From a virus (taxonomy: Duplodnaviria; Caudoviricetes), in IMG/VR virus record IMGVR_UViG_3300036846_000898, positions 1 through 34,435 of that record: DNA of 34,435 nt; one strand, given 5' to 3'. The translations under genes and the position numbers were made by a program. Positions 1,581 through 23,842 of this stretch are shown here, in pieces. The notes under the pieces were generated by a model. The model made no database searches. It saw only the letters and a list, made by a program, of their open reading frames with translations, and was not told where the DNA came from. How positions within the stretch are numbered: the stretch's first letter is position 1; each line of letters starts with the position of its first letter.

Positions 1581-1690
1581 TGGCTCGGCTCCTTTGGTTG
1601 CGGTTGTGCGGCCGCCGAGCCCGGCACGGGCGGCAGCGGCTTCACGTCACCCGGCTGATAGGTGAAGCGGTCGGCGCGCGGGTCGGCCAT
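1577..1690 (-). CDS. 37-aa microprotein MADPRADRFTYQPGDVKPLPPVPGSAAAQPQPKEPSQ; candidate immunity protein of the MuF-ART toxin
   Basis: TGATG overlap with the MuF-ART stop (1688-1692) and ATGA overlap with the scaffold start (1577-1580). Confidence 0.65.
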   Translation of the reverse strand: MADPRADRFTYQPGDVKPLPPVPGSAAAQPQPKEPSQ

Positions 1691-3015
1691 CACTCGGGCG
1701 CCACGATGAGCTTGTCGACGGTCTGTTTGCCGAGATAGCCCTTGTCGCCCTGGCGTTCGTAACCGATCACGCGCATGACTTGGCCGCGCGGGAGGGTCAG
1801 CTCTTGCTCGCTGAAGGCGGTGCTGCCTCGACCTGACACGACCGGCAGCGACGCCGACGCGTAGCCCTTCGGCAGTCGGTATTCGATCACCGCGCCGCTG
1901 CCGCCCTCGTGCACCGGGACGCCCGAGTACCCCACCGCGAGGTGCTCCGACCCGGTAGTCGAGACGAAGCCGGAATCGCTGAACCGTGCGCCGACCGCGG
2001 ATTCGTCGACCGGCGTGCCGAGCCATTGCTCGGCGTTCTGCGCGCCGCGGTACACCGTCGCATCGCGCGGCAGCGACCCCTTGGCGATCGCGCTGTCGAG
2101 GTTGTCGACGTAGGCGTTCTGCTCGGCGGTGAGGGGGCTGTCGCTGCGCAGATCGTCGTTGATCGCCGAGGACGACTGGTACCGCTTGACCGCGCCCAGC
2201 TCATCGCTGGTGAGGTCGCCGCTCCACGCCTGCCAGGGCTCGCTCGTCATGTCGGCAGGCGTGAGGTCGGCGCTCTCGGGCGCGGGCTCGGGCTCGGGTG
2301 GCGGCTCTTGCACGGCGATCGGACCATCGCTCCCGAGACGGTCGGTCTCGGCTTGGGCGTCGTCGACGCGCTGCTGGTCGGCGTACAGATCCTTCGACAA
2401 CGCGCGTTGACGTTCGAGCGTCGGGTCGTCCTCGTCGCTGACCGGCGCCACGCCACAGGTGCAGTTGTTGTGCGCGGGGGCCAGCTCGTCGGTGCGGTAG
2501 GTCTGGCCGGCGATGAGCAGGCAGAAGTCGCAGGCCACGTCGCTTGGCACGCGCCGATAAGCGACGACGCCCGGCGTGTCGTCCATCGCGGCGACCGCGG
2601 CCTGTTGGCTCGTGTCGGCGACGTCGGTGCGCGCCAGCTCCCGCACGAGCCGCGCGGCCTTGTCCATCGCATCGTCGAAGAATGACCCCTGCGCCAGCGA
2701 CGTGCGCGCGTCGATGACCGGGCTCATGTACCGATCGGGCAGCCCGTCGGCCACGACCGAAGCGATGTCGAGCTTGGCGGTGGGAGCCAGGTCCATCGAC
2801 CGTGCGATCTGGCGCGTGTAGGCGAGCTGGGTGTAGGCGGCCTGAGTCTTGGAGGCACGCATCGTCGGGACCGCGAAGCGCAACCACGTGGACGCGTCCT
2901 CGTCGGTGATGCCGCCCAGGTGCCCCCACGAGCGGTAGTAGATCTCGCCGATCTTCTTGGCGTACGCGCTCATGCGGCGCTGATTCGCCACCGCGAGATC
3001 AACGGGCGACGGCAC
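1690..3015 (-). CDS. MuF-like minor head protein fused to a C-terminal VIP2-like ADP-ribosyltransferase (about 441 aa)
   Basis: Follows the portal gene. MuF motif 'YRRVPSDVACDFCLLIA...HNNCTC'; ART R-S-E signature 'VYRG', 'GFVSTT', 'FSEQELTLPRG'. Probable GTG start at 3015 overlapping the portal end. Confidence 0.88.
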   Translation of the reverse strand: MPSPVDLAVANQRRMSAYAKKIGEIYYRSWGHLGGITDEDASTWLRFAVPTMRASKTQAAYTQLAYTRQIARSMDLAPTAKLDIASVVADGLPDRYMSPVIDARTSLAQGSFFDDAMDKAARLVRELARTDVADTSQQAAVAAMDDTPGVVAYRRVPSDVACDFCLLIAGQTYRTDELAPAHNNCTCGVAPVSDEDDPTLERQRALSKDLYADQQRVDDAQAETDRLGSDGPIAVQEPPPEPEPAPESADLTPADMTSEPWQAWSGDLTSDELGAVKRYQSSSAINDDLRSDSPLTAEQNAYVDNLDSAIAKGSLPRDATVYRGAQNAEQWLGTPVDESAVGARFSDSGFVSTTGSEHLAVGYSGVPVHEGGSGAVIEYRLPKGYASASLPVVSGRGSTAFSEQELTLPRGQVMRVIGYERQGDKGYLGKQTVDKLIVAPE

Positions 3016-4441
3016 CGGACACCGTGACGACCGGCGCCGCGAGCGCGGTGCGCGCGGCCTGCTCCGCGGCCATCTGCTTCCACCGGTCGATCTCTTGCGG
3101 TGATGCGCCCCACTTCTGCCAGAGCACTTCTTGGGGCACGCCGATGCTCGCCATCTTGACGAGCGCGTCGGCCAGCTCGGCATCGGAGCGAGTCTCGAAG
3201 TCGCCCCACATGACCTCGGCTTGGAAGTCGGCCGCGCGGGCGTCGCCTATCGCCGAGAAGGACAGCCGCATGACGTCCTCCCACGCTTCGCCGATGTGGG
3301 CGGCGCGGCGTCGCACCTTCGCCACCAGCCCGGCCTCGGCCGCCTTCAGCGCATCGCCGCTCGCGTTGACGATCTCGCCGAGCAGATAGTGCGGCGGCGT
3401 CTTGGTCACCGCGGCGAGATGGTTCACGTCCGAGGCCACGGAGCGGATGTAGCCCGCCAACTCGCTCTCGCCGAACTCGCCGAACTTGACGGTCGAATCC
3501 TCGGCGACGAGCAGGCGATCGACCGCGATCTCGAACGGCGACGCGTGCTGCGGCTCGCCCGTCAGCGGGTCGGTGATCTCGTTGCCGTCGGCGTCGCGCG
3601 CGACCGGCAACGTCAGGCCGGTGGCCCACTTCTGGCGGAAGGCGGCGTACTCGGTCGCGATCATCCGGTTGAGGATCGTCGTGTTGATCCGGTCCTGAAG
3701 GTCGAGCACGCCATCCATCTCGGAGCGCCCCGGCAACATGCCGACGAGCAGCGGATTCGAGCGCGGCCACGGGCACAACTCGACGATGGGCACCTCGCCC
3801 AGCGGGTTCGCAGCCTCCGCGGTGAGTTGCCAGTACGCGCCGCTCCAGATCATCGCGGTCGTCGCGCCCGGAGGTTGTGTGCCGGGCGCTGGCGCGGCCC
3901 ATTCGAAGCTCGTGCTCGCGGTGCAGAGCCAGCAGCGCAACAGCCCCGGCTCGCGCCAGGTCTTGAGCGAGACGAGCGGCGTGCGTCGGTCGTCGGGGTC
4001 GTAGGCGAGGATCGTCTGCGTCGGGTGCTCGGCGGCGATGCGCACCCCGACCGGCGAGTCCTGATCCGGCCACACGCTCACGTAGTTGACCCCGCACACC
4101 AGCGCGTCGGTCTGCGCAAGTTCGGCGTTGGCGTCGAGGCCGTTGGCCTGCCAGATCATCCAGGCGTCGTCGTCGCCTTGCGCGTCGCCGAAGCGGAAGC
4201 CGACGACCTGCAACCGCTCGGCCACGGAGTCGACGACGAGCTGTATCCAGTTCGTGCGCGACTGCTTCAGCAGGCGGCGGTAGGCGTCGAGCGCGGCCTG
4301 GGGCGCACGAGGCAGCGGGTGGTCGCCCTCGTAGTAGGCGAGGCGCTCCCGGAGGAAGGGTTGGCGCCATTGCAGCTCGACCAGCAGCGCCGTGCGCCAT
4401 TGCTCGGGTGTCCGGTCGGCCAACGCCGACATCTCGGTCAT
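2999..4441 (-). CDS. Portal protein (SPP1 Gp6-like), about 480 aa
   Basis: 'YYEGDHPL...TNWIQLVVDSVAERLQVVGF', 'AAFRQKWATG', 'NASGDALKAAEAGLVAKV' motifs; ATG 4441 lies just after terL. The longer ORF-track start overlaps terL. Confidence 0.93.
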   Translation of the reverse strand: MTEMSALADRTPEQWRTALLVELQWRQPFLRERLAYYEGDHPLPRAPQAALDAYRRLLKQSRTNWIQLVVDSVAERLQVVGFRFGDAQGDDDAWMIWQANGLDANAELAQTDALVCGVNYVSVWPDQDSPVGVRIAAEHPTQTILAYDPDDRRTPLVSLKTWREPGLLRCWLCTASTSFEWAAPAPGTQPPGATTAMIWSGAYWQLTAEAANPLGEVPIVELCPWPRSNPLLVGMLPGRSEMDGVLDLQDRINTTILNRMIATEYAAFRQKWATGLTLPVARDADGNEITDPLTGEPQHASPFEIAVDRLLVAEDSTVKFGEFGESELAGYIRSVASDVNHLAAVTKTPPHYLLGEIVNASGDALKAAEAGLVAKVRRRAAHIGEAWEDVMRLSFSAIGDARAADFQAEVMWGDFETRSDAELADALVKMASIGVPQEVLWQKWGASPQEIDRWKQMAAEQAARTALAAPVVTVSGAVAR

Positions 4442-9752: not shown

Positions 9753-10834
9753 CGGTGCTCCCCGGTGTCGAGCACCCGCACGTGCTCGACGTTCGACAAC
9801 GGCGCATCCTCGGGGCCCCGCCAATGCGCGGCGATCCACGTCGGCCGCCGGTACGCACGATGGGGCCCGTACGCCTGGCGGCGCCAGTGGCCGCTCACGA
9901 GGTAGCGCACGTTGACGTGGCGGTGCTCGCCGTCGCCGTTGGCGTGGGTGCGAGTGTGTCGCCGAGCGACGTCGATGATCTGCACCGTCGGGGTCGCCGC
10001 GCCGTGACGCTCCGCTCGTCGTCGCTCAGCGCGGGTGCCGTGTGAGGTCTCCACCGAGGCGATGCCCGGCTGCGTCATCAGCAACCACAGCGCGGCCAGC
10101 CGTCGCCGGTCCTCGGCGATCGACGCGAACGCCGAGTCGGTGTAGGGCAGCTCACGATGCTCGACGGGCGTGCCGTACAGCCAGTCGCCCCGGCCGAGCC
10201 ACGCCCACACGTCGCCGTGGACGTGAAAGCTCAGGTTGGAGCCTTCACGAAACACCGGGCCTCGCGTCGCCTGTCCGATCGCGCCGGTGACGAGCGCGTG
10301 ATCCAACTCGTGACCGGCGAGGCCGTCGTCGGCGTTGTAGCGGCTGTAGCTGACCATGCCGAGCCCGTCGCGCAGGCGACGGGGTTCGGCGACGCGCACG
10401 GTGCCGCCGCCGATCACCTGCTGCAACTCGGCGAGGTGCACCGGGCCCCAGCACATGGCATCGACGCGCACCAACGGCCCAGCGTCGTCTCGTTGCGCGT
10501 CGAGCCCGTACAGCGGGCGCTCGAACACGACGAGCCCCGATGAACGCGGCACCAGCTCGGCCTCGAGAATCGTGTCGGGCGGGACCGTGCGCTCCGCGGC
10601 GGCGAGCACCTCGCACATCTCGGCGCTCACCCACCACAGCGACGCATCGACGAGCGTGCGCAGATGGAAGTCCGGTTCGCGTGCTGCCCCGGCCTCGTGT
10701 TCGACCTGGGTGACCATCGTGCCCGGCATCATCGCGGCCGTGGCGGCGTACGCACCGCCCGGCAGCCAGCTTTCGAGCAGTCGGTCTCGCAACGTCGGGA
10801 GGTCACGCGGACCCCGTATCACCACTTCAGGCAT
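9749..10834 (-). CDS. Conserved phage hypothetical protein (361 aa)
   Basis: RBS AAGGAG; C-terminal 'VSGHWRRQAYGP...WIAAHWRGP' motif common in phage proteins. Confidence 0.82.
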   Translation of the reverse strand: MPEVVIRGPRDLPTLRDRLLESWLPGGAYAATAAMMPGTMVTQVEHEAGAAREPDFHLRTLVDASLWWVSAEMCEVLAAAERTVPPDTILEAELVPRSSGLVVFERPLYGLDAQRDDAGPLVRVDAMCWGPVHLAELQQVIGGGTVRVAEPRRLRDGLGMVSYSRYNADDGLAGHELDHALVTGAIGQATRGPVFREGSNLSFHVHGDVWAWLGRGDWLYGTPVEHRELPYTDSAFASIAEDRRRLAALWLLMTQPGIASVETSHGTRAERRRAERHGAATPTVQIIDVARRHTRTHANGDGEHRHVNVRYLVSGHWRRQAYGPHRAYRRPTWIAAHWRGPEDAPLSNVEHVRVLDTGEHR

Positions 10835-10872
10835 TGCCCTCTCCTTGCGTTCACGTGTGTGGTCCGTAAACG

Positions 10873-17672: not shown

Positions 17673-17684
17673 GGCCTCAGACAG

Positions 17685-17730
17685 AAAAGGCCCCGAGGCG
17701 TTCACGTCGTCGAACGTGCGCCTCGGGGCC
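17685..17730 (-). terminator. Intrinsic terminator downstream of the integrase
   Basis: GGCCCCGAGGCG...CGCCTCGGGGCC 12-bp stem followed by TTTT on the minus strand. Confidence 0.75.
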
Positions 17731-17771
17731 CTGTGACTTCAAGCCGGTTCTCCTGTGGATGACGTTGTGGA

Positions 17772-19301
17772 TCACTCCATCGGCCGACGCCACACGATGT
17801 CCACTCGTGCGAGCGGGTGTGGATCGTGGCCGCGTGTGCGCTCGCCCTCGGGGCGGGCGCTGATGTCGACGCGCTCGATGAACGCACGCAGCACCGCGTT
17901 GCGGTCGTCGTCGTCCATCTCGTCCCATGCGGCGATGATGCGCTCACCCTCGCCGATGAGTCGACGCTGCTCGCTCACGACGTCAACGTCGTGGGCTTGG
18001 GCGTCCAGCTCGTGCAACAAGGCGACGTGCTTGGTCTCCTCGGCGTCGTACTGGTCGTCGGTGATGCGCCCGTCCCCGGCGAGATAGCTCGTCGTGAACT
18101 TGGCGAACCGTTTCACCGCGTCCTCACGGCGGGCTCGGACATCGTTGCGACGCCGCCTGCGGTAGTCGGGTGCGCCAGGCACCCGTTGCCCGCTGAGCAC
18201 ACGGTGCACGACTTCCACGATGGCCGGTTCCACGACGATGTCGCGGATGGCCGTTGTGGCGCAGACGTGCATGTTCGCCGCGGTCTTCTTGCACTTCCAG
18301 TAACGGTACGGACCCTTGGGTCGATGATGTCCCTGGGCGTGCACGACCAATCGTGCGTGGCACTCGCCGCAATACATCAGGCCGCTCACGAGCGTGCGTG
18401 GTCCCGGCGTGGCGTCGGGGCCCCGTCGTGCTGCGTTGACCTTGGCGACGAGTCGGTCGTAGGTCTTGCGGTCGAGGATCGGCTGCCACGCCGCCTTGGC
18501 GTCGGGCTCTCCGGAGTACCGGAGGATGCCCGCGTTGCGCGGGTTGAGCAGCACGCTCTTCACGCTCGTGACGTGCCACGCACGACCGCCACGCGGGAGC
18601 GTGAGCCCTCGCGTGTTCCAATCGCGTGCGACCTCGGACCACGACCAGCCGTCGAGCACGTGCTCGGCGGCGGCACGAATCTCGGCTGCCTCTTGGGGAT
18701 GCTGAGTCATGCCGTCCTCGCGGTCGTGACCGTGACGCTTGCCCAGCCATCCGAACGCACACACACCCACGCCGACGTGCCCCTGCTTGCGCAGGTCGCC
18801 GTTGGATCGGGTGCGCCGTTCGCTCGTCGAGTCGGATTCGCCGGCCGATTGCATCGTGAGCATGCGGGCCGACTGCTTGCCGAACGACGTTGCCAGGTCG
18901 AGCAACATGCCGCCACTGGCGACGACGTACAACGCGCCGTGCCGTTTCGCGGTGCGAAACAGACGAGCGAGGTCGTAGTCGTCACGGACGAGCCGCGACC
19001 ACTCGGACACGAGGACGACGCCGACCTCGCCACGGTCGAGGAGGTCGAACAGGTGCTCGAACCCCTCGCGGTCGCGGCGGCGGTGCATGGACGCCGACCG
19101 GTCGTTGTCTTTGATGGTCGGGTGCGTGACGTTGTATGCGCCGAAGGCGGTGGTGATCCGCTCCTGCCGGTCGACGTTGTCGGTGTCGGCAGGGTCGGCG
19201 TCGCTGAGACGCGCGTAGCGAATGGCAGGGATCTCGTGCAACGAGAACCCTCGCCACGTGTGCAGGCTGCGCCCGGTGTCCCGGCTACGCTGGCCGTTCA
19301 C
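17772..19301 (-). CDS. int: Large serine recombinase (phage integrase); about 509 aa from GTG 19301, or 534 aa from ATG 19376
   Basis: 'AIRYARLS' catalytic Ser, 'DNDRSAS', 'SRLVRD', recombinase domain 'LLNPRNAG', Zn ribbon 'CGECHARL...YWKC...C', coiled coil. Confidence 0.94.
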   Translation of the reverse strand: MNGQRSRDTGRSLHTWRGFSLHEIPAIRYARLSDADPADTDNVDRQERITTAFGAYNVTHPTIKDNDRSASMHRRRDREGFEHLFDLLDRGEVGVVLVSEWSRLVRDDYDLARLFRTAKRHGALYVVASGGMLLDLATSFGKQSARMLTMQSAGESDSTSERRTRSNGDLRKQGHVGVGVCAFGWLGKRHGHDREDGMTQHPQEAAEIRAAAEHVLDGWSWSEVARDWNTRGLTLPRGGRAWHVTSVKSVLLNPRNAGILRYSGEPDAKAAWQPILDRKTYDRLVAKVNAARRGPDATPGPRTLVSGLMYCGECHARLVVHAQGHHRPKGPYRYWKCKKTAANMHVCATTAIRDIVVEPAIVEVVHRVLSGQRVPGAPDYRRRRRNDVRARREDAVKRFAKFTTSYLAGDGRITDDQYDAEETKHVALLHELDAQAHDVDVVSEQRRLIGEGERIIAAWDEMDDDDRNAVLRAFIERVDISARPEGERTRGHDPHPLARVDIVWRRPME

Positions 19302-19332
19302 GGTCCCTCCTTGCGGAGGCATACGTGTGTGG

Positions 19333-19362
19333 GAGGGCCCCTCGGTACGCCGAGGGGCCCTC
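19333..19362. promoter_or_regulatory. Perfect 13-bp hairpin between the two possible integrase starts
   Basis: GAGGGCCCCTCGG-TACG-CCGAGGGGCCCTC. Confidence 0.6.
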
Positions 19363-19428
19363 GTGGTTTTCGCCATCGGTTCTCTCCTGGTTGGTTGTAC
19401 GTGTGTGGGCTCCTGAGCGGAGCGGGCA

Positions 19429-19458
19429 CGCCACCCGATCCGTGTGGACCGGGTGGCG
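19429..19458 (-). terminator. GC-rich stem-loop just after the stop of the 228-aa gene (possible terminator or processing site)
   Basis: CGCCACCCG...CGGGTGGCG; no U-tract. Confidence 0.4.
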
Positions 19459-19469
19459 ACCCTGTGCGC

Positions 19470-20156
19470 TCAGGCGGCGTCGACGTTGGTGACGTCGATG
19501 TAATGAAGTTCCGCGTCGCCGCTCCACGATTCGGTGATGATCTCGTCGAACGAGCGGTCGCTCGGCTGGTCATCGTCGTCGAGTTCGACGGTGAACGAGA
19601 TCGTGGCGGTCACGTCCCAGCGACGCGGCGGCATGTCGAGTCCGAGCTCTTCGAGGAATTCGCGCTTGCCGGAACGGCACCCGTGTTCCCACTCGGCAGT
19701 CGTCTCGGCCACGCGGTCCCTGAAGTTCGACAACGCGTGCTCGGCATTGCGCCGTTCGGCGTGTGCCACTTCGAGCGCGGTGCGCAGCTCGTCTTTGATG
19801 ACGAGGCTCCGCTGTAGCTCGGCCTCGACATCAGCGAGCTTGCCGACGACACAGCCGTCGGCGTGTGCGCCGTTCACGCGGCCACACAGCGGGCACGTCG
19901 TGAACGATTGCGAGCACCAGCCCATCACCGAAGTCGGGTCGGTCGTCGTGACGCAGCAGGCGGTACACGCGAGCACGTCATCGTCAACCGGTCCGAGCTT
20001 CTCGGCGAGCACGCCGTCGTATCGCACGGCGACCCATTCGTGAGCTGGCTCGGCCACCACGTCGGCGGCCTCGCTTCGAATCTGCGCCTCGGGGATCGGG
20101 GTGGTGCCGTCAGTCGGCACGATTCCGGGACCGAGGTCGAGGTTCGTTTCAGTCAT
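19470..20156 (-). CDS. Hypothetical protein (228 aa): Cys-rich region, coiled coil and acidic C-terminus
   Basis: Strong RBS CAGGAGAG; 'GCRSGKREFLEELGL...VTATISFTV'. Confidence 0.8.
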   Translation of the reverse strand: MTETNLDLGPGIVPTDGTTPIPEAQIRSEAADVVAEPAHEWVAVRYDGVLAEKLGPVDDDVLACTACCVTTTDPTSVMGWCSQSFTTCPLCGRVNGAHADGCVVGKLADVEAELQRSLVIKDELRTALEVAHAERRNAEHALSNFRDRVAETTAEWEHGCRSGKREFLEELGLDMPPRRWDVTATISFTVELDDDDQPSDRSFDEIITESWSGDAELHYIDVTNVDAA

Positions 20157-20250
20157 TGGTTCTCTCCTGGTTGGTTGCATTACGTGTGTGGTTGACGTCT
20201 GAGACGTCGCGATGCGCAGCGAGTTGGAACCCGCTGCGCACCGCGCTCAC

Positions 20251-20574
20251 TCAGTCGTAGGTCGCCCATCTCGGGCGAGTGTTCGGGCGACGAGGGACGA
20301 ACGTCCGCTGGTCGAGGTCGAGGTCGCACGCGTTGAACTGCACGAGGCGAACGAGCGACCGCTTGACGACGGACCCCGCGACGCCGAGCTGGCGAGCCAG
20401 CGGGGCGACGGCGAGCACGTACGTGCCCTCGGGACGGTCGAGCATCGACAGCCACAGCAACGTGGACGTGGGCCCGAGCATGGCGAGGGTGCCGTCATCG
20501 ACAACCTCGCGCAGGCTCGGACACGCCACATGCGCCATGCGGCGGACGACGATCTCGTCGGACGAGATGGTCAT
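20251..20574 (-). CDS. Winged-helix-like protein (107 aa)
   Basis: 'LGPTSTLLWL...LARQLGV...VKRSLVRLVQF'; ATGA overlap. Confidence 0.68.
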   Translation of the reverse strand: MTISSDEIVVRRMAHVACPSLREVVDDGTLAMLGPTSTLLWLSMLDRPEGTYVLAVAPLARQLGVAGSVVKRSLVRLVQFNACDLDLDQRTFVPRRPNTRPRWATYD

Positions 20575-20714
20575 GCGACCTCCATCCCCGCGTGCAATCC
20601 GCACTCCGCGTGCACGATGAGCGAGGGCCCCTCGTGCTGCGGGTCGTACATCTCGGCACGTTCGTCGGCGGGCTTGAACTGCTCGCCGCACAGCTCGCAA
20701 CGGCGGCGCGTCAT
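20571..20714 (-). CDS. 47-aa Zn-finger microprotein
   Basis: MTRRRCELCGEQF...IVHAECG; ATGA-coupled on both sides. Confidence 0.68.
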   Translation of the reverse strand: MTRRRCELCGEQFKPADERAEMYDPQHEGPSLIVHAECGLHAGMEVA

Positions 20715-21076
20715 TGGACATCGCCCTCGTTGAGTAACTGCGGCGGGTTGTTCTCGTTGATGAGCGAGAACGTTTCGCCGAGTCGCTGGTATTGGTGTCC
20801 GTTGTCGCACGCCCACGATTGCCCGATACCGGGCGCGCCGTAGTCGGCGACGTAGTGCAGCAAGCTGCTGCACACGTCACAGGCACGCACGTACTCGAAA
20901 CGGTCTTCGCGCGGCACCAGGCCGAGCGACGAGCCGTCGTCCCACTTGACGTGGACGGTGCCCATGTCGTCGACAAGGCGAACGGTCCCGAGCGTGCCGG
21001 GTTCCAGCCGCGTGTACGGGTCGGACGTCGAGATGAGTCGCACGCGCCGACCGACGCGTGAATCTCGGTGTGTCAT
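20711..21076 (-). CDS. DUF4314-domain protein with C-terminal Zn ribbon (121 aa)
   Basis: 'GRRVRLISTSDPY..L.PGT.GTV..VDDMGTVHVKWDDGSSLGLVP.ED'; RBS AAGGAG. Confidence 0.85.
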   Translation of the reverse strand: MTHRDSRVGRRVRLISTSDPYTRLEPGTLGTVRLVDDMGTVHVKWDDGSSLGLVPREDRFEYVRACDVCSSLLHYVADYGAPGIGQSWACDNGHQYQRLGETFSLINENNPPQLLNEGDVQ

Positions 21077-21132
21077 GGTTTTCTCCTTGGTTGCATTACG
21101 TGTGTGTGGTTGCTGCTCATGCGCAGCCCGCG

Positions 21133-21395
21133 CGGCCATCGACTCAAGCTGGGGCGCCGTCGTCGTCGATGGCCGACGGTGTGCGCACGTCATGCCAACA
21201 GGAGAACCGGATCGAATGTCACAAGTCGGTTGCGCAACGTGCGGCGAGGTGGTCGTCCGTGTCGCGGCTTCGTGTTCACCCTCAAGCCGAGGCCGTCGTC
21301 AGGCGAGCACGGCGTGTCACCCTCAAGCCGAGGCCGTCGTCGGGCGACACGTCGATGGGTGCACCCTCAAGCCGAGGCCGTCGTCAGGCGAACCC
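21133..21395 (-). ncRNA. Array of four kink-turn-like hairpins in the 5' leader of the DUF4314-integrase operon
   Basis: Hairpins at 21133-21175, 21271-21311, 21313-21351 and 21357-21395 share the loop GAC-GA-C-GGC-(N4-6)-GCU-U-GA, closed by different but complementary stems. Confidence 0.7.
21277..21391. repeat. Three 30-bp direct repeats CACCCTCAAGCCGAGGCCGTCGTC(A/G)GGCGA
   Basis: Copies at 21277, 21318 and 21362 (periods 41 and 44 bp); a degenerate copy at 21143-21164. Confidence 0.95.
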
Positions 21396-21423
21396 GTGAG
21401 CGTATGTATGCGCTCACCACGTC

Positions 21424-21474
21424 ATGCTATGCCCTACACGCATACGAACCTTTGTTCGTCCGAACCAGTGTTCG
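21424..21474 (-). promoter_or_regulatory. Putative SOS-inducible leftward promoter: -10 TAGCAT with two tandem LexA boxes
   Basis: CGAAC-CTTT-GTTCG (21445-21458) and CGAAC-CAGT-GTTCG (21461-21474) both match the Gram-positive/actinobacterial SOS box; TANNNT at 21429-21424. Confidence 0.75.
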
Positions 21475-21552
21475 TGTTGTCGGATGTGTAGAGCTTCCCG
21501 AGGCCACGAGGAACACACATACACGCCAGGCACGGCAGGTGCGCCCCTGCCT

Positions 21553-21584
21553 GCGCACGTCGTCTGGGGCGTCACGACGTGCGC
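21553..21584. other. 11-bp inverted repeat in the intergenic region
   Basis: GCGCACGTCGT...ACGACGTGCGC. Confidence 0.45.
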
Positions 21585-21808
21585 AACGTGTCGAGGCGAC
21601 GTGTCACGGGGGCCCTGGGGGTGCCTCCCGTCACCCCGTCACCCATGCGCCTGACGCATGATGGCGCACGTCGTCGGGCGTGTCACATCGGGCGACGATG
21701 ATGGCGGCGTTCCCGAGCTATGACGACCTGTACCCCGACGGCGACGACGGCACGGCGGCCGCGCAGGCATCGCCGTCTAAGCGGTCAACGCATGGCAGCA
21801 TGGGCGAC

Positions 21809-22153
21809 ATGCCGATGCTGTCCTTCCGCCAGATGTACGTCGCACCCATCATGCGCGGCGAGAAGCGAGCAACGATCCGGCGGGCGTCGAACCGGCTGCC
21901 CCGTCAGGGCGACGATGTCGTGCTCACGGTCGGGCCCCGGCCGCCGTTCGCCCACGCCACGGTGCGCCGGGTCGAGCGGTTCACCCTCGACGATTGCGAA
22001 CGGTGGTTCGCCGTCGACGGGCACCCCAACGCCGAGGTCATGCGGCGAGCCATCGTCGACCTGTACGGCGAGGACGCCGAGCTGGTCGTGATCGAGTTCG
22101 CGCTCAGGCGTCCACCCCGGACACCCCGTCGAGCAAGCACCGCGCGTCGCTGA
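21809..22153 (+). CDS. ASCH-domain protein, YqfB-like (possible acyl-nucleoside amidohydrolase or RNA-binding protein)
   Basis: 'LSF...Y...I.RGEKRATIR', 'GD', 'AVDG', 'DLY......VIEF' ASCH motifs. Upstream in-frame starts exist; ATG 21809 follows TGG-CAGCAT by 7 nt. Confidence 0.85.
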   Translation: MPMLSFRQMYVAPIMRGEKRATIRRASNRLPRQGDDVVLTVGPRPPFAHATVRRVERFTLDDCERWFAVDGHPNAEVMRRAIVDLYGEDAELVVIEFALRRPPRTPRRASTARR

Positions 22154-23255
22154 GCTTCATGCGATCGCCGACGTAGCGGAACGTCGCGTTCGGGCGGGCG
22201 CCCTGGTGCCAATCGGTGGGCAGCGACGAGCGGGGCCCACGGATGACGCTGCCGACCTTGGGGGCGATCTCCAGCGCCCACGTGGGTGATCGGTCGAACG
22301 AGCGGATCAGCGCCGGGTGCGCCGGGTACGTGCGCATGTTGCACACCTTGGCGGCGTAGGCCGAGGCAACGCGGTCGACGAGCGCGAACGCCAGGCCGAG
22401 CCCCTGCCAGTCGGGGAGCGTGACGAGGCGGCTGACCCCGTAGTTGCGGGTGGCGAAGCGCGACGGGCGCGGCAGCACCCCGGCGCAGGCGGCCGGTTCG
22501 CCCTCGGCGTACAGCACATAGAGGCGGGCGCTCGGGTGGAGCTTGGCCGTCAGATAGTGAAACGGAGCGAACAACCGCCAGAGCGCGTAGGGCGCTCGCT
22601 CGATTCGGCACGCGATGTCGGGGCGTCGATGAAGAGACCTCCAGGTGAAGGCGTCGCCGATCGGCCCCTCGCCGCGCGCCTTGGCGGGCTCGAACACCCA
22701 ATCCGGCTGGAGCCAGTCGATCACGTCGTAGTGGCAGGTCGCGGCGACGAAGCGCCGGTCGGCCCTTCGCACATGCTTGGCGACGGCGTGGGCTCCGATC
22801 TTGGCGACCTGGCGATCGACGACCGAGGTGAACTCGTCCATGACGATCTGCTCGGTCGGCGAGATGAGTCGTCGCGCCAGCTCGACACGGAAGCGCTCGC
22901 CGTTCGACAGGTGCTCGTACGGGCGCAGCCACGCCGGAATGGTGTTGAAGCCGACCGCGCTGCACACCGCGACGATGGCCTCGAGGTCGACGTCGGCCGG
23001 GAAGTCGTCGATGACCGAGGGCGCGGACCATTCGACGGCGGGCGGGTCGCCGAAGCACGAGCGGAGCACGGTCGTCTTGCCTGCGCCCGAGGGCCCGACG
23101 ATGAGGCCCACGTTCCATTCGCGGGTGTCGAGCGGCAGGTCGGCCGACCAGTGGATGGCCTGGCGCTCAGCGGCGGGCACGTCGTAGGCGGCGCTCACCT
23201 GCTCGGCGCGGATGGTGGACGACGGCGCGCACGAGACGGTGACATCGACCTTCAC
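22104..23255 (-). CDS. ABC-type ATPase fused to a GNAT acetyltransferase (putative nucleic-acid modification enzyme)
   Basis: Walker A 'GPSGAGKTT', signature 'LSNGE', Walker B 'VMDEFTS', H-loop 'ATCH', GNAT 'FAPFHYL...SRLVTLPDWQGLGL'; no TM partner. Confidence 0.9.
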   Translation of the reverse strand: MKVDVTVSCAPSSTIRAEQVSAAYDVPAAERQAIHWSADLPLDTREWNVGLIVGPSGAGKTTVLRSCFGDPPAVEWSAPSVIDDFPADVDLEAIVAVCSAVGFNTIPAWLRPYEHLSNGERFRVELARRLISPTEQIVMDEFTSVVDRQVAKIGAHAVAKHVRRADRRFVAATCHYDVIDWLQPDWVFEPAKARGEGPIGDAFTWRSLHRRPDIACRIERAPYALWRLFAPFHYLTAKLHPSARLYVLYAEGEPAACAGVLPRPSRFATRNYGVSRLVTLPDWQGLGLAFALVDRVASAYAAKVCNMRTYPAHPALIRSFDRSPTWALEIAPKVGSVIRGPRSSLPTDWHQGARPNATFRYVGDRMKLSDARCLLDGVSGVDA

Positions 23256-23842
23256 TGAGCGACCGCCCGTGCTCGCAGCCCCTCGCTGCGTAGCCGTTCG
23301 AGCAACGTGCCCTGATGCTCGGCGTCGTCACAGTCGATGACGACGCGGTAGGTGTAGTCGATCTCCAACTGCGGCGACGCGTCGAAGCGGGTCGGCTTGT
23401 GGCCGAGCGCCGCGTGCAGCGCATCCATCGACCAACCGGTCCCGCCGAGGGCGTCACGCTCGTCCCAGGCCGGGAGCAGGTCGGCGAGCATGTCGAGGTC
23501 CCATCCGCCGGCCTCGACGAGTCGGTTCGACGCGAGCAGGTATCCGTCGGCCTCGTCGTCGTCGGTGCTCGACCAGCCCCGCAGCACCGGCACCCGCCAT
23601 GCGTCGTCGTCGTCGACCTCGACGCCATCGGGTGGCGGCTCGCCAGCGGCCCGACGACGGCGCAGCGCATCGACCCGGCCGTGGCCGACGACGAGGCGAC
23701 CGGTGCGCTCGTCGAGGATGATCGGCTCCACGTAGCCGAACCGGCGAAACGATTCGTCGAGCAGCGGCAGGTCATGGCGCTTGGGATTGTGCTCGGCCGG
23801 TTGCAGCTCGTCGAGCGCCAGATACTCCAAGGTGCGCGTCAT
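23252..23842 (-). CDS. ParB/Srx-like N-terminal domain protein
   Basis: 'NPKRHD...SFRRFGYVEPII......VVGHGR...ASNRL...GGWD'; GTGA-coupled to the ABC-GNAT gene. Confidence 0.88.
   Translation of the reverse strand: MTRTLEYLALDELQPAEHNPKRHDLPLLDESFRRFGYVEPIILDERTGRLVVGHGRVDALRRRRAAGEPPPDGVEVDDDDAWRVPVLRGWSSTDDDEADGYLLASNRLVEAGGWDLDMLADLLPAWDERDALGGTGWSMDALHAALGHKPTRFDASPQLEIDYTYRVVIDCDDAEHQGTLLERLRSEGLRARAVAQ

Follow-up and report, generated by a model that had tools for sequence, protein, structure and literature searches.

The window analysed here is the whole 34,435-nt stretch of a Caudoviricetes genome (IMG/VR record IMGVR_UViG_3300036846_000898), which has a GC content of 70%, direct terminal repeats at the record ends and a CheckV estimate of 51%. 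Its gene content comprises siphovirus head and tail genes, a large serine integrase, RecE/RecT-like genes and an HTH repressor pair. The stretch is present in two soil metagenome runs (X1, which may be where this DNA came from, and X2), a single X1 contig covering all of it, and no RNA run is among the runs listed as carrying it. The closest terminase matches come from Streptomyces and Mycobacterium phages (38-40%), a Gordonia phage gives the highest identity to the ABC/GNAT protein among the matches listed, and the Atlas look-alikes of a winged-helix ORF include clusters with Actinomycetota as the commonest phylum. We infer that the host is an actinomycete, with Actinomycetota as the likely phylum, an assignment from sequence likeness that does not amount to proof. 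Elsewhere in the genome, an ADP-ribosyltransferase domain is fused to a head morphogenesis-type protein (1690-3183; PF25310 and PF03496), and a ParB-like gene is paired with an ABC-ATPase/GNAT fusion (22104-23842), a pair also found in Gordonia phage Jace.

On the minus strand, an operon runs from a DUF4314 gene through two overlapping ORFs and a 228-aa gene to the integrase and a U-tailed hairpin. The DUF4314 gene (20711-21076; 121 aa, SH3-like barrel) is followed by a 47-aa ORF (20714-20571) and a winged-helix-like 107-aa ORF (20574-20251), for which no close relatives were found. Next come the 228-aa gene (20156-19470), which has neither a known family nor an informative look-alike, and the large serine integrase (17772-19376), the last gene, for which an IMG/VR search returned no relatives. 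A terminator-like U-tailed hairpin (17680-17731; fold z -4.62) marks the operon end. Directly after the integrase stop, ATCCACA occurs twice, 14 nt apart (17752-17774), a pair that we take to be DnaA-box-like or part of attP.

Four related translation-start modules, each consisting of CACACACGTA and then a Shine-Dalgarno sequence and each preceded by a hairpin, punctuate this operon; in pairwise comparisons they have 26-34 identical letters. Module 1 (21074-21106) serves DUF4314, with the Shine-Dalgarno AGGAG at 21087-21083, the ATG at 21076 and a small 5-bp hairpin ahead of it (21112-21127). Module 2, together with an intergenic hairpin at 20254-20199, lies before the 228-aa gene (20152-20254; z -4.17), and module 3, with a hairpin at 19474-19412, before the integrase ATG at 19376 (19372-19474; z -5.01). 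Module 4 follows a perfect hairpin (19362-19333) and precedes an in-frame integrase GTG at 19301 (19298-19362). The region 19298-19408 holds two integrase starts with their own modules and, between them, the perfect 13-bp hairpin, whose U-tail points toward the plus strand. In each of the hairpins at 20199-20254 and 19412-19474, a CUGAG/CUCAG closing stem spans the upstream stop codon and an internal loop is present; both are presumably RNase III-site-like.

Upstream of the operon lie two LexA-type (SOS) boxes, to which no strand is assigned. Box 1 (21461-21474) is a perfect match to the palindrome CGAAC-N4-GTTCG, and box 2 (21445-21458) stands 2 bp from it, over the expected -35 position. A similar LexA box is also used by other Gram-positive-type phyla. 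A putative -10 hexamer, TAGCAT (21424-21429, minus strand), was read by eye and is absent from the promoter scan; judged from it, the RNA is predicted to start at about 21418, at the foot of a 5' hairpin. LexA-type matches with at most one mismatch number 8 against 2.6 expected, a count reached in none of 100 shuffles. Both boxes are candidate sites by sequence: they fit the core of the Streptomyces LexA motif, given in one report as tCGAAC-N4-GNNCGa (PMC9380542), and differ from its outer t...a letters. Because two such boxes stand in tandem just upstream, the promoter is likely LexA-repressed and the RNA likely SOS-induced. Among the phage proteins, no S24 or M78 peptidase was found and the repressor is HTH only; since it has no self-cleaving domain, the LexA-gated operon offers a plausible route of induction. 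Further upstream of the boxes is a perfect 12-bp inverted repeat with a 10-nt loop (21552-21585; z -3.13). Viral contigs often have two LexA-type boxes close together (seen in L334-L455; an estimated 240 or so stretches in all), and in two loci (L259 and L260) such pairs also lie upstream of DUF4314.

Between the predicted RNA start and module 1, the minus strand folds into a row of hairpins. A 7-bp 5' hairpin (21396-21417), noticed already in the initial annotation and predicted here with a pair probability of 0.99, is followed by kink-turn hairpin 1 (21357-21395; U-G closing pair, one stem mismatch), hairpin 2 (21313-21351; C-G closing pair, 10 bp, fold z -3.34), hairpin 3 (21271-21311; U-G closing pair, one stem mismatch) and hairpin 4 (21133-21175), which has an 11-bp perfect stem of different sequence, a 6-nt loop and a z of -3.75. 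That annotation had interpreted three near-identical units and one diverged copy as stem-loops of the minus strand, and all four read as it described; its periods of 41 and 44 reappear as start-to-start spacings of 44 and 41 nt among units 1-3. The term tandem array fits units 1-3 and not unit 4, which a 95-nt linker separates from unit 3. Within unit 4 (21157-21167), GAC occurs three times in a row, so that the stem could shift by 3 nt and thereby alternate between kinked and unkinked pairing.

The 19-nt core is present in three exact copies in the window. A generic scan for kink-turn hairpins (at least 8 of 9 C-stem pairs, a 3-nt bulge, GA/GA and at least 3 NC pairs), which is partly fitted because its thresholds were relaxed once a stricter first version had caught only 2 of the 4 units, gave four matches on both strands of the 34,435 bases, all within the array. 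The same scan produced a mean of 0.3 and a maximum of 1 match in 40 Markov controls, and 12 matches in 494 fetched loci (2.37 Mb), with zero adjacent pairs in either set. The outer stems had been said to vary yet pair around an invariant internal loop, and indeed the first ten stem positions pair in 38 of 40 cases on the minus strand and in 34 of 40 on the plus. Between units 2 and 4, 8 of 10 positions per arm have changed and yet all pairs are kept, an outcome that random changes gave in 30 of 200,000 trials, and the stem of unit 3 contains a symmetrical insertion relative to the other copies, again with pairing kept. The fold z-score of the region is -2.75 on the minus strand versus -1.08 on the plus. 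Both changes that X2 shows inside the array leave the pairing untouched, one being in bulge L2 (21384) and the other in the tetraloop (21375), a weak comparison that consists of one contig at a depth of 6.4; no diverged array copy was found among reads at 80% likeness in X1 or X2. A real, selected RNA structure at the array is very likely.

Two explanations would deny the RNA its role. If the repeats were double-stranded DNA sites (operators, iterons or sites for a recombination factor) placed about four helical turns apart, the RNA fold would be a by-product. Such sites, which we consider very unlikely, would agree with the direct repeats of 38 nt, 79-92% alike, at 41 and 44 bp and with the abundance of operators and ACGT words in the region (10 in 670 bp versus 5.8 per kb; the ACGT-GCGCA motif, searched as a pattern, showed no enrichment). 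They do not account for the different stem with which unit 4 pairs (the 30 in 200,000 chance event), for the G-U pairs that are valid on the minus strand only, or for invariant letters that are exactly the kink-turn positions. We hold it to be extremely unlikely that one chance kink-turn-like hairpin was recently duplicated and has no function: although the array comes from one phage only, has identical cores in three copies and resembles single look-alikes that arise by chance in coding DNA (L314, L333, L490), the stem changes of the copies retain pairing, including the symmetrical insertion of unit 3 and the different stem of unit 4.

The transcript across the array is likely a minus-strand non-coding leader. 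Over units 1-3 the minus strand has stops in all three frames, although one minus frame is open from unit 3 via unit 4 into DUF4314; homologues of the latter begin at Met 21076.

All four units have the core of a standard kink-turn, that is, a 3-nt bulge and tandem G.A and A.G pairs between the C and NC helices. The closing pair -1b:-1n is C:G in units 2 and 4, the best pair for folding in the published rules, where G:C blocks it (PMC8191799), and U-G in units 1 and 3, which lies outside those rules as far as that source sets them out. At 3b:3n and 4b:4n, all four units have C.U and G-U, respectively. According to the published rules, protein-free folding in magnesium is expected when 3b is C or 3n is G in a non-Watson-Crick pair, and folding is aided by G-U at 4b:4n, an effect shown for 3b:3n = A:G (PMC8191799, PMC5061560). 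By their letters, the cores carry the signature of ion-induced kink folding, and the original identification as a standard K-turn is backed by these sequence rules and by the covarying stems of the four units. An Rfam comparison, which had been suggested as a check, gave no family match in the array region: the covariance-model search of the window returned three matches at E up to 5, all of them elsewhere. Membership in drum, HOLDH, RAGATH-18, Actinomyces-1 and L10_leader was rejected, none of these having a covariance-model match at the array. The hairpin loops vary (in unit 4 and in X2), which makes a loop-loop contact unlikely and a site recognised by its core likelier.

Homologous arrays were sought in IMG/VR, JGI metagenomes, GTDB genomes, GenBank phages and plasmids, and the sequence-bound patterns and model found none beyond the near-identical copy in the second soil sample. 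The single-core pattern, run on about one third of the IMG/VR collection, matched at least 120 loci, none with real stems; the two-core pattern matched 67 loci, the array being in none of them, and the start-module pattern 6 loci, all unrelated. JGI metagenomes yielded three loci, one of which is a coding repeat, and no array; GTDB genomes yielded four, with no kink hairpins at the matches; and blastn against phages and plasmids gave short matches only, at E 0.07 or worse. Nor was an array found at 122 viral double-LexA-box loci from about half of the collection (80 with full flanks), where four single weak kink matches lie near the boxes. A generic two-kink pattern hit 18 loci with one look-alike, in an archaeal-type virus (L201, IMGVR_UViG_3300035454_001657). 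On the minus strand of that record, at 3935-4120, a TATA-like element, a 5' hairpin and a row of kink-turn-like hairpins (two clear and one weaker) form a similar layout in unrelated sequence, with a whole-region fold z of -0.44; a DUF3800-X RNA lies at 110-183 of the same record.

The covariance model, built from units 1-3, is a weak tool because unit 4 scores only 12.7 bits with it. In 150 Actinomycetota genomes it gave weak matches in 36, and no array was present in the 19 of the top 20 that were inspected; one match (L333) was discarded as antisense to a coding gene. The unit pattern with two mismatches matched in 17 of 401 genomes versus 14 control matches, and 16 of its loci, when inspected, had no array, the best one being coding. 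Genomes flagged as unpublished (G050, G122, G557) are counted in these two tallies and may also be among the other samples of the phylum, but none of the claims depends on their sequence. As no homologous array was found, there is no between-genome covariation for the hairpins or for the pairing described next. A literature search likewise found no description of such an RNA, and no phage is mentioned in the accessible text of two surveys of 3D motifs in Rfam (PMC12510878, PMC13085918).

The linker between hairpins 3 and 4 contains a 27-nt anti-RBS arm (21185-21211, minus strand) that complements the four start modules. Its duplexes with them have energies of -24.2, -26.4, -28.4 and -29.3 kcal/mol, the near (DUF4314) module being matched less well than the three later starts. 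Among 8,601 candidate windows on the minus strand, the arm is the top-ranked partner of each of three modules; for single modules, its lead on the runner-up is small, at 1.0, 0.3 and 1.8 kcal/mol. Summed over four modules, it ranks first of 11,470, a sum reached by none of 2,000 arm shuffles; as the modules are related, the four matches are not four tests. Shuffled leaders attain the arm value in 0 of 150 cases for DUF4314 and in 1 of 150 for the integrase. The complementarity covers the Shine-Dalgarno beyond chance, and the X2 sequence is identical across the arm. For 26 other genes, the start regions have partners upstream at -17 to -38 kcal/mol, a control that is uninformative because these regions are GC-richer and it was not GC-matched. 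A weaker fifth start module, at 10826-10862 before a 361-aa gene, pairs with the arm at only -17.9 kcal/mol. The arm could also be the sense RBS of a plus-strand ORF (21216-21491), but that ORF has no codon bias (GC 0.62/0.60/0.65); the phage genes used for comparison, picked by selection, have a GC3 of at least 0.78.

In the prediction for the full leader, four of the five Shine-Dalgarno letters are paired and hairpin 4 is placed within the loop of the arm:RBS helix. Opening the first RBS is predicted to cost 9.1 kcal/mol with the arm versus 1.7 without it, and a median of 3.4 with a shuffled linker (1 of 100 at 9.2). There are two copies of the 10-mer GCATGACGTG, one at the putative RNA start (21418-21427) and one in the arm (21186-21196), each 15 nt past TTCG. 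The second copy could be a weaker promoter for an arm-less RNA beginning at hairpin 4, in which the RBS is predicted to be open.

An inverted duplication of one module would look the same as a selected arm. If the hairpins merely stabilised the message, by 5' protection or processing, the arm could be such a chance inverted copy, and one would expect, as is seen, a hairpin before every start module in the operon and 22-24 letters that the arm's complement has in common with each module. Plain hairpins would suffice for this purpose, however, leaving invariant kink-turn cores on covarying stems superfluous, and an accidental arm would carry the cost of the occlusion predicted for the first RBS; we regard stabilisation alone as distinctly unlikely.

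The reading that we tentatively prefer, while stopping short of calling it probable, is a LexA-gated antisense translational brake in which the kink-turn hairpins serve as protein docks and protective caps. DNA damage would free the two boxes of host LexA, and the RNA would begin near 21418, at the putative promoter. Five local hairpins would fold first (predicted probability at least 0.96), the kink-turn cores being expected from their letters to kink in magnesium without protein. Some 100 nt later the arm is predicted to shut over the Shine-Dalgarno of DUF4314, enclosing hairpin 4 in the loop, which would silence the three overlapping ORFs after at most a brief window. The leader may then be cleaved in the C/A-rich single-stranded stretch that follows hairpin 4, mycobacterial RNase E being reported to cleave before C in C-rich RNA (PMC10641625), and the resulting small RNA of about 300 nt, its arm capped by hairpins on either side, could base-pair at the three starts further along the operon, two of which belong to the integrase. 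A candidate kink-turn-binding protein would likely stabilise the RNA or shift its fold. The net effect would be a short pulse and then damping of early and integrase protein upon induction. An RNA that represses its own co-transcribed genes needs a release step; before the RBS is made, the arm is predicted to pair loosely upstream, in a competing fold about 9 kcal/mol weaker.

We also entertain, as an unlikely reading, an SOS-induced guide RNA that is cut from the leader of its own operon, is bound by a kink-turn-binding protein unrelated to L7Ae and shuts four starts, both integrase starts among them, with one arm. In box C/D guide RNAs, the C and D boxes flank the guide on one helix, and L7Ae acts with partner proteins. 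The phage RNA was excluded from that class, as each of its kinks closes its own hairpin, its cores are GACGAC/UUGA and L7Ae was not found.

As for candidate binding proteins, 1 of the 151 Actinomycetota genomes searched has a PF01248 (L7Ae/YbxF) match above the cut-off, as do 0 of 101 genomes in the order of G107, the genome with the best match to the phage SLT-domain lysis protein, and the family was not found in the phage. The proposal of the initial annotation that the array is a sponge for L7Ae is weakened by this rarity. Two neighbouring proteins had also been named there as possible binders: the kink-turn array is present at none of the 80 viral DUF4314 loci examined, of 572, and the ASCH gene sits on the opposite strand.

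Unlikely, in our estimate, is an array that acts upon SOS as a multivalent decoy or landing pad for some host kink-turn-binding protein, be it ribosomal or not, with the arm incidental. An invariant core repeated four times on variable stems and loops fits repeated protein sites. A related kink (CC/GG stem, 3-nt bulge, GAC) is present in 9 of 13 Actinomycetota L10 leaders examined, and L10(L12)4 is described as binding such a kink (PMC4538822). The phage units, however, have no extra A, 3n = C or UAA element as the L10 site does, the L7Ae family is nearly absent from the genomes surveyed, and the arm is left unexplained.

The predicted structure of DUF4314 is an SH3-like barrel with a core pLDDT above 96. 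Its fold matches are generic (best Z 7.6, to an endonuclease domain; Foldseek E 0.01 or worse), the tied ones including KOW and Tudor domains, with NusG/Spt5 KOW at a Z of about 6.3. This likeness bears on the possibility, which we judge quite improbable, of a put-like RNA that modifies RNA polymerase for read-through to the integrase, perhaps aided by an SH3/KOW-like DUF4314. HK022 put consists of two stem-loops and is not known to have kink-turns. As described, it is, like the phage leader, a structured promoter-proximal phage RNA; it works as nascent RNA and acts on RNA polymerase (PMC9378689). The generic nature of the DUF4314 match and the 0 of 80 DUF4314 loci with such a leader count against a partnership of this kind. 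Three strong hairpins do lie before the integrase body, as read-through would have it, but no U-tailed minus-strand terminator is listed from the leader to the integrase for it to overcome, and the 19333 hairpin has its U-tail toward the plus strand, which speaks against the antitermination suggested earlier. Tail-less termination occurs in Actinomycetota.

The preferred reading, an antisense brake with kink-turn docks, can be compared with several known systems. The OOP promoter of phage lambda is under LexA control. Lambda OOP is likewise a phage antisense RNA against a lysogeny function and is reported to have a minor role after SOS induction (PMC2327240). Transcribed from the opposite strand, OOP is fully complementary to a single target and has no kink-turns, whereas the phage arm is on the same strand, is imperfect and fits four starts. 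Promoter P1 of GIL01 also belongs to a temperate phage in which several host SOS boxes gate induction; the phage class differs, and the account of it seen here describes no such structured leader (PMC4551915).

Among kink-turn RNAs, the archaeal l7ae 5'-UTR has a leader kink-turn stem-loop tied to RBS occlusion (PMC6298567). As presented there, it is one kink over the RBS, folds in dependence on L7Ae and is bound by its own gene product. The phage instead has four kinks with a self-folding signature away from the RBS, the nearest ending 46 nt before the Shine-Dalgarno, a separate arm predicted to do the occluding and no PF01248. The bacterial L10 (rplJL) leader similarly uses a kink as a protein site that switches expression; it mimics rRNA at a single site and includes an extra A, 3n = C and a UAA element (PMC4538822; RF00557), and since the phage units have none of these three features, we rejected their membership among the L10(L12)4-target leaders. 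The orphan bacterial RNAs drum, HOLDH, RAGATH-18 and Actinomyces-1 are described as having one standard kink-turn each, and the phage shares G-U at 4b:4n with three of them and C at 3b with Actinomyces-1 (PMC8191799). It differs from them in having four copies as terminal hairpins of a phage leader, in its antisense arm and in the lack of a model match. In the preferred reading, the phage leader would resemble the l7ae and L10 leaders, and antisense RNAs of the OOP type, in its way of working, but it fails membership in each.

The case is built on one phage and on prediction. Bacterial kink-turns are, for the most part, single elements of RNA architecture or sites for ribosomal proteins; four terminal kink-turn hairpins from a phage whose likely host phylum is nearly without L7Ae would be ready bait for other bacterial kink-turn readers. 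One arm for all starts of a LexA-gated integrase operon would, if true, add an RNA layer to prophage induction and integration, for which our literature search found no description. The guide-RNA reading, if true, would establish a new class of ribonucleoprotein with which a phage regulates its lysis-lysogeny switch and would point to a novel kink-turn reader in Actinomycetota.
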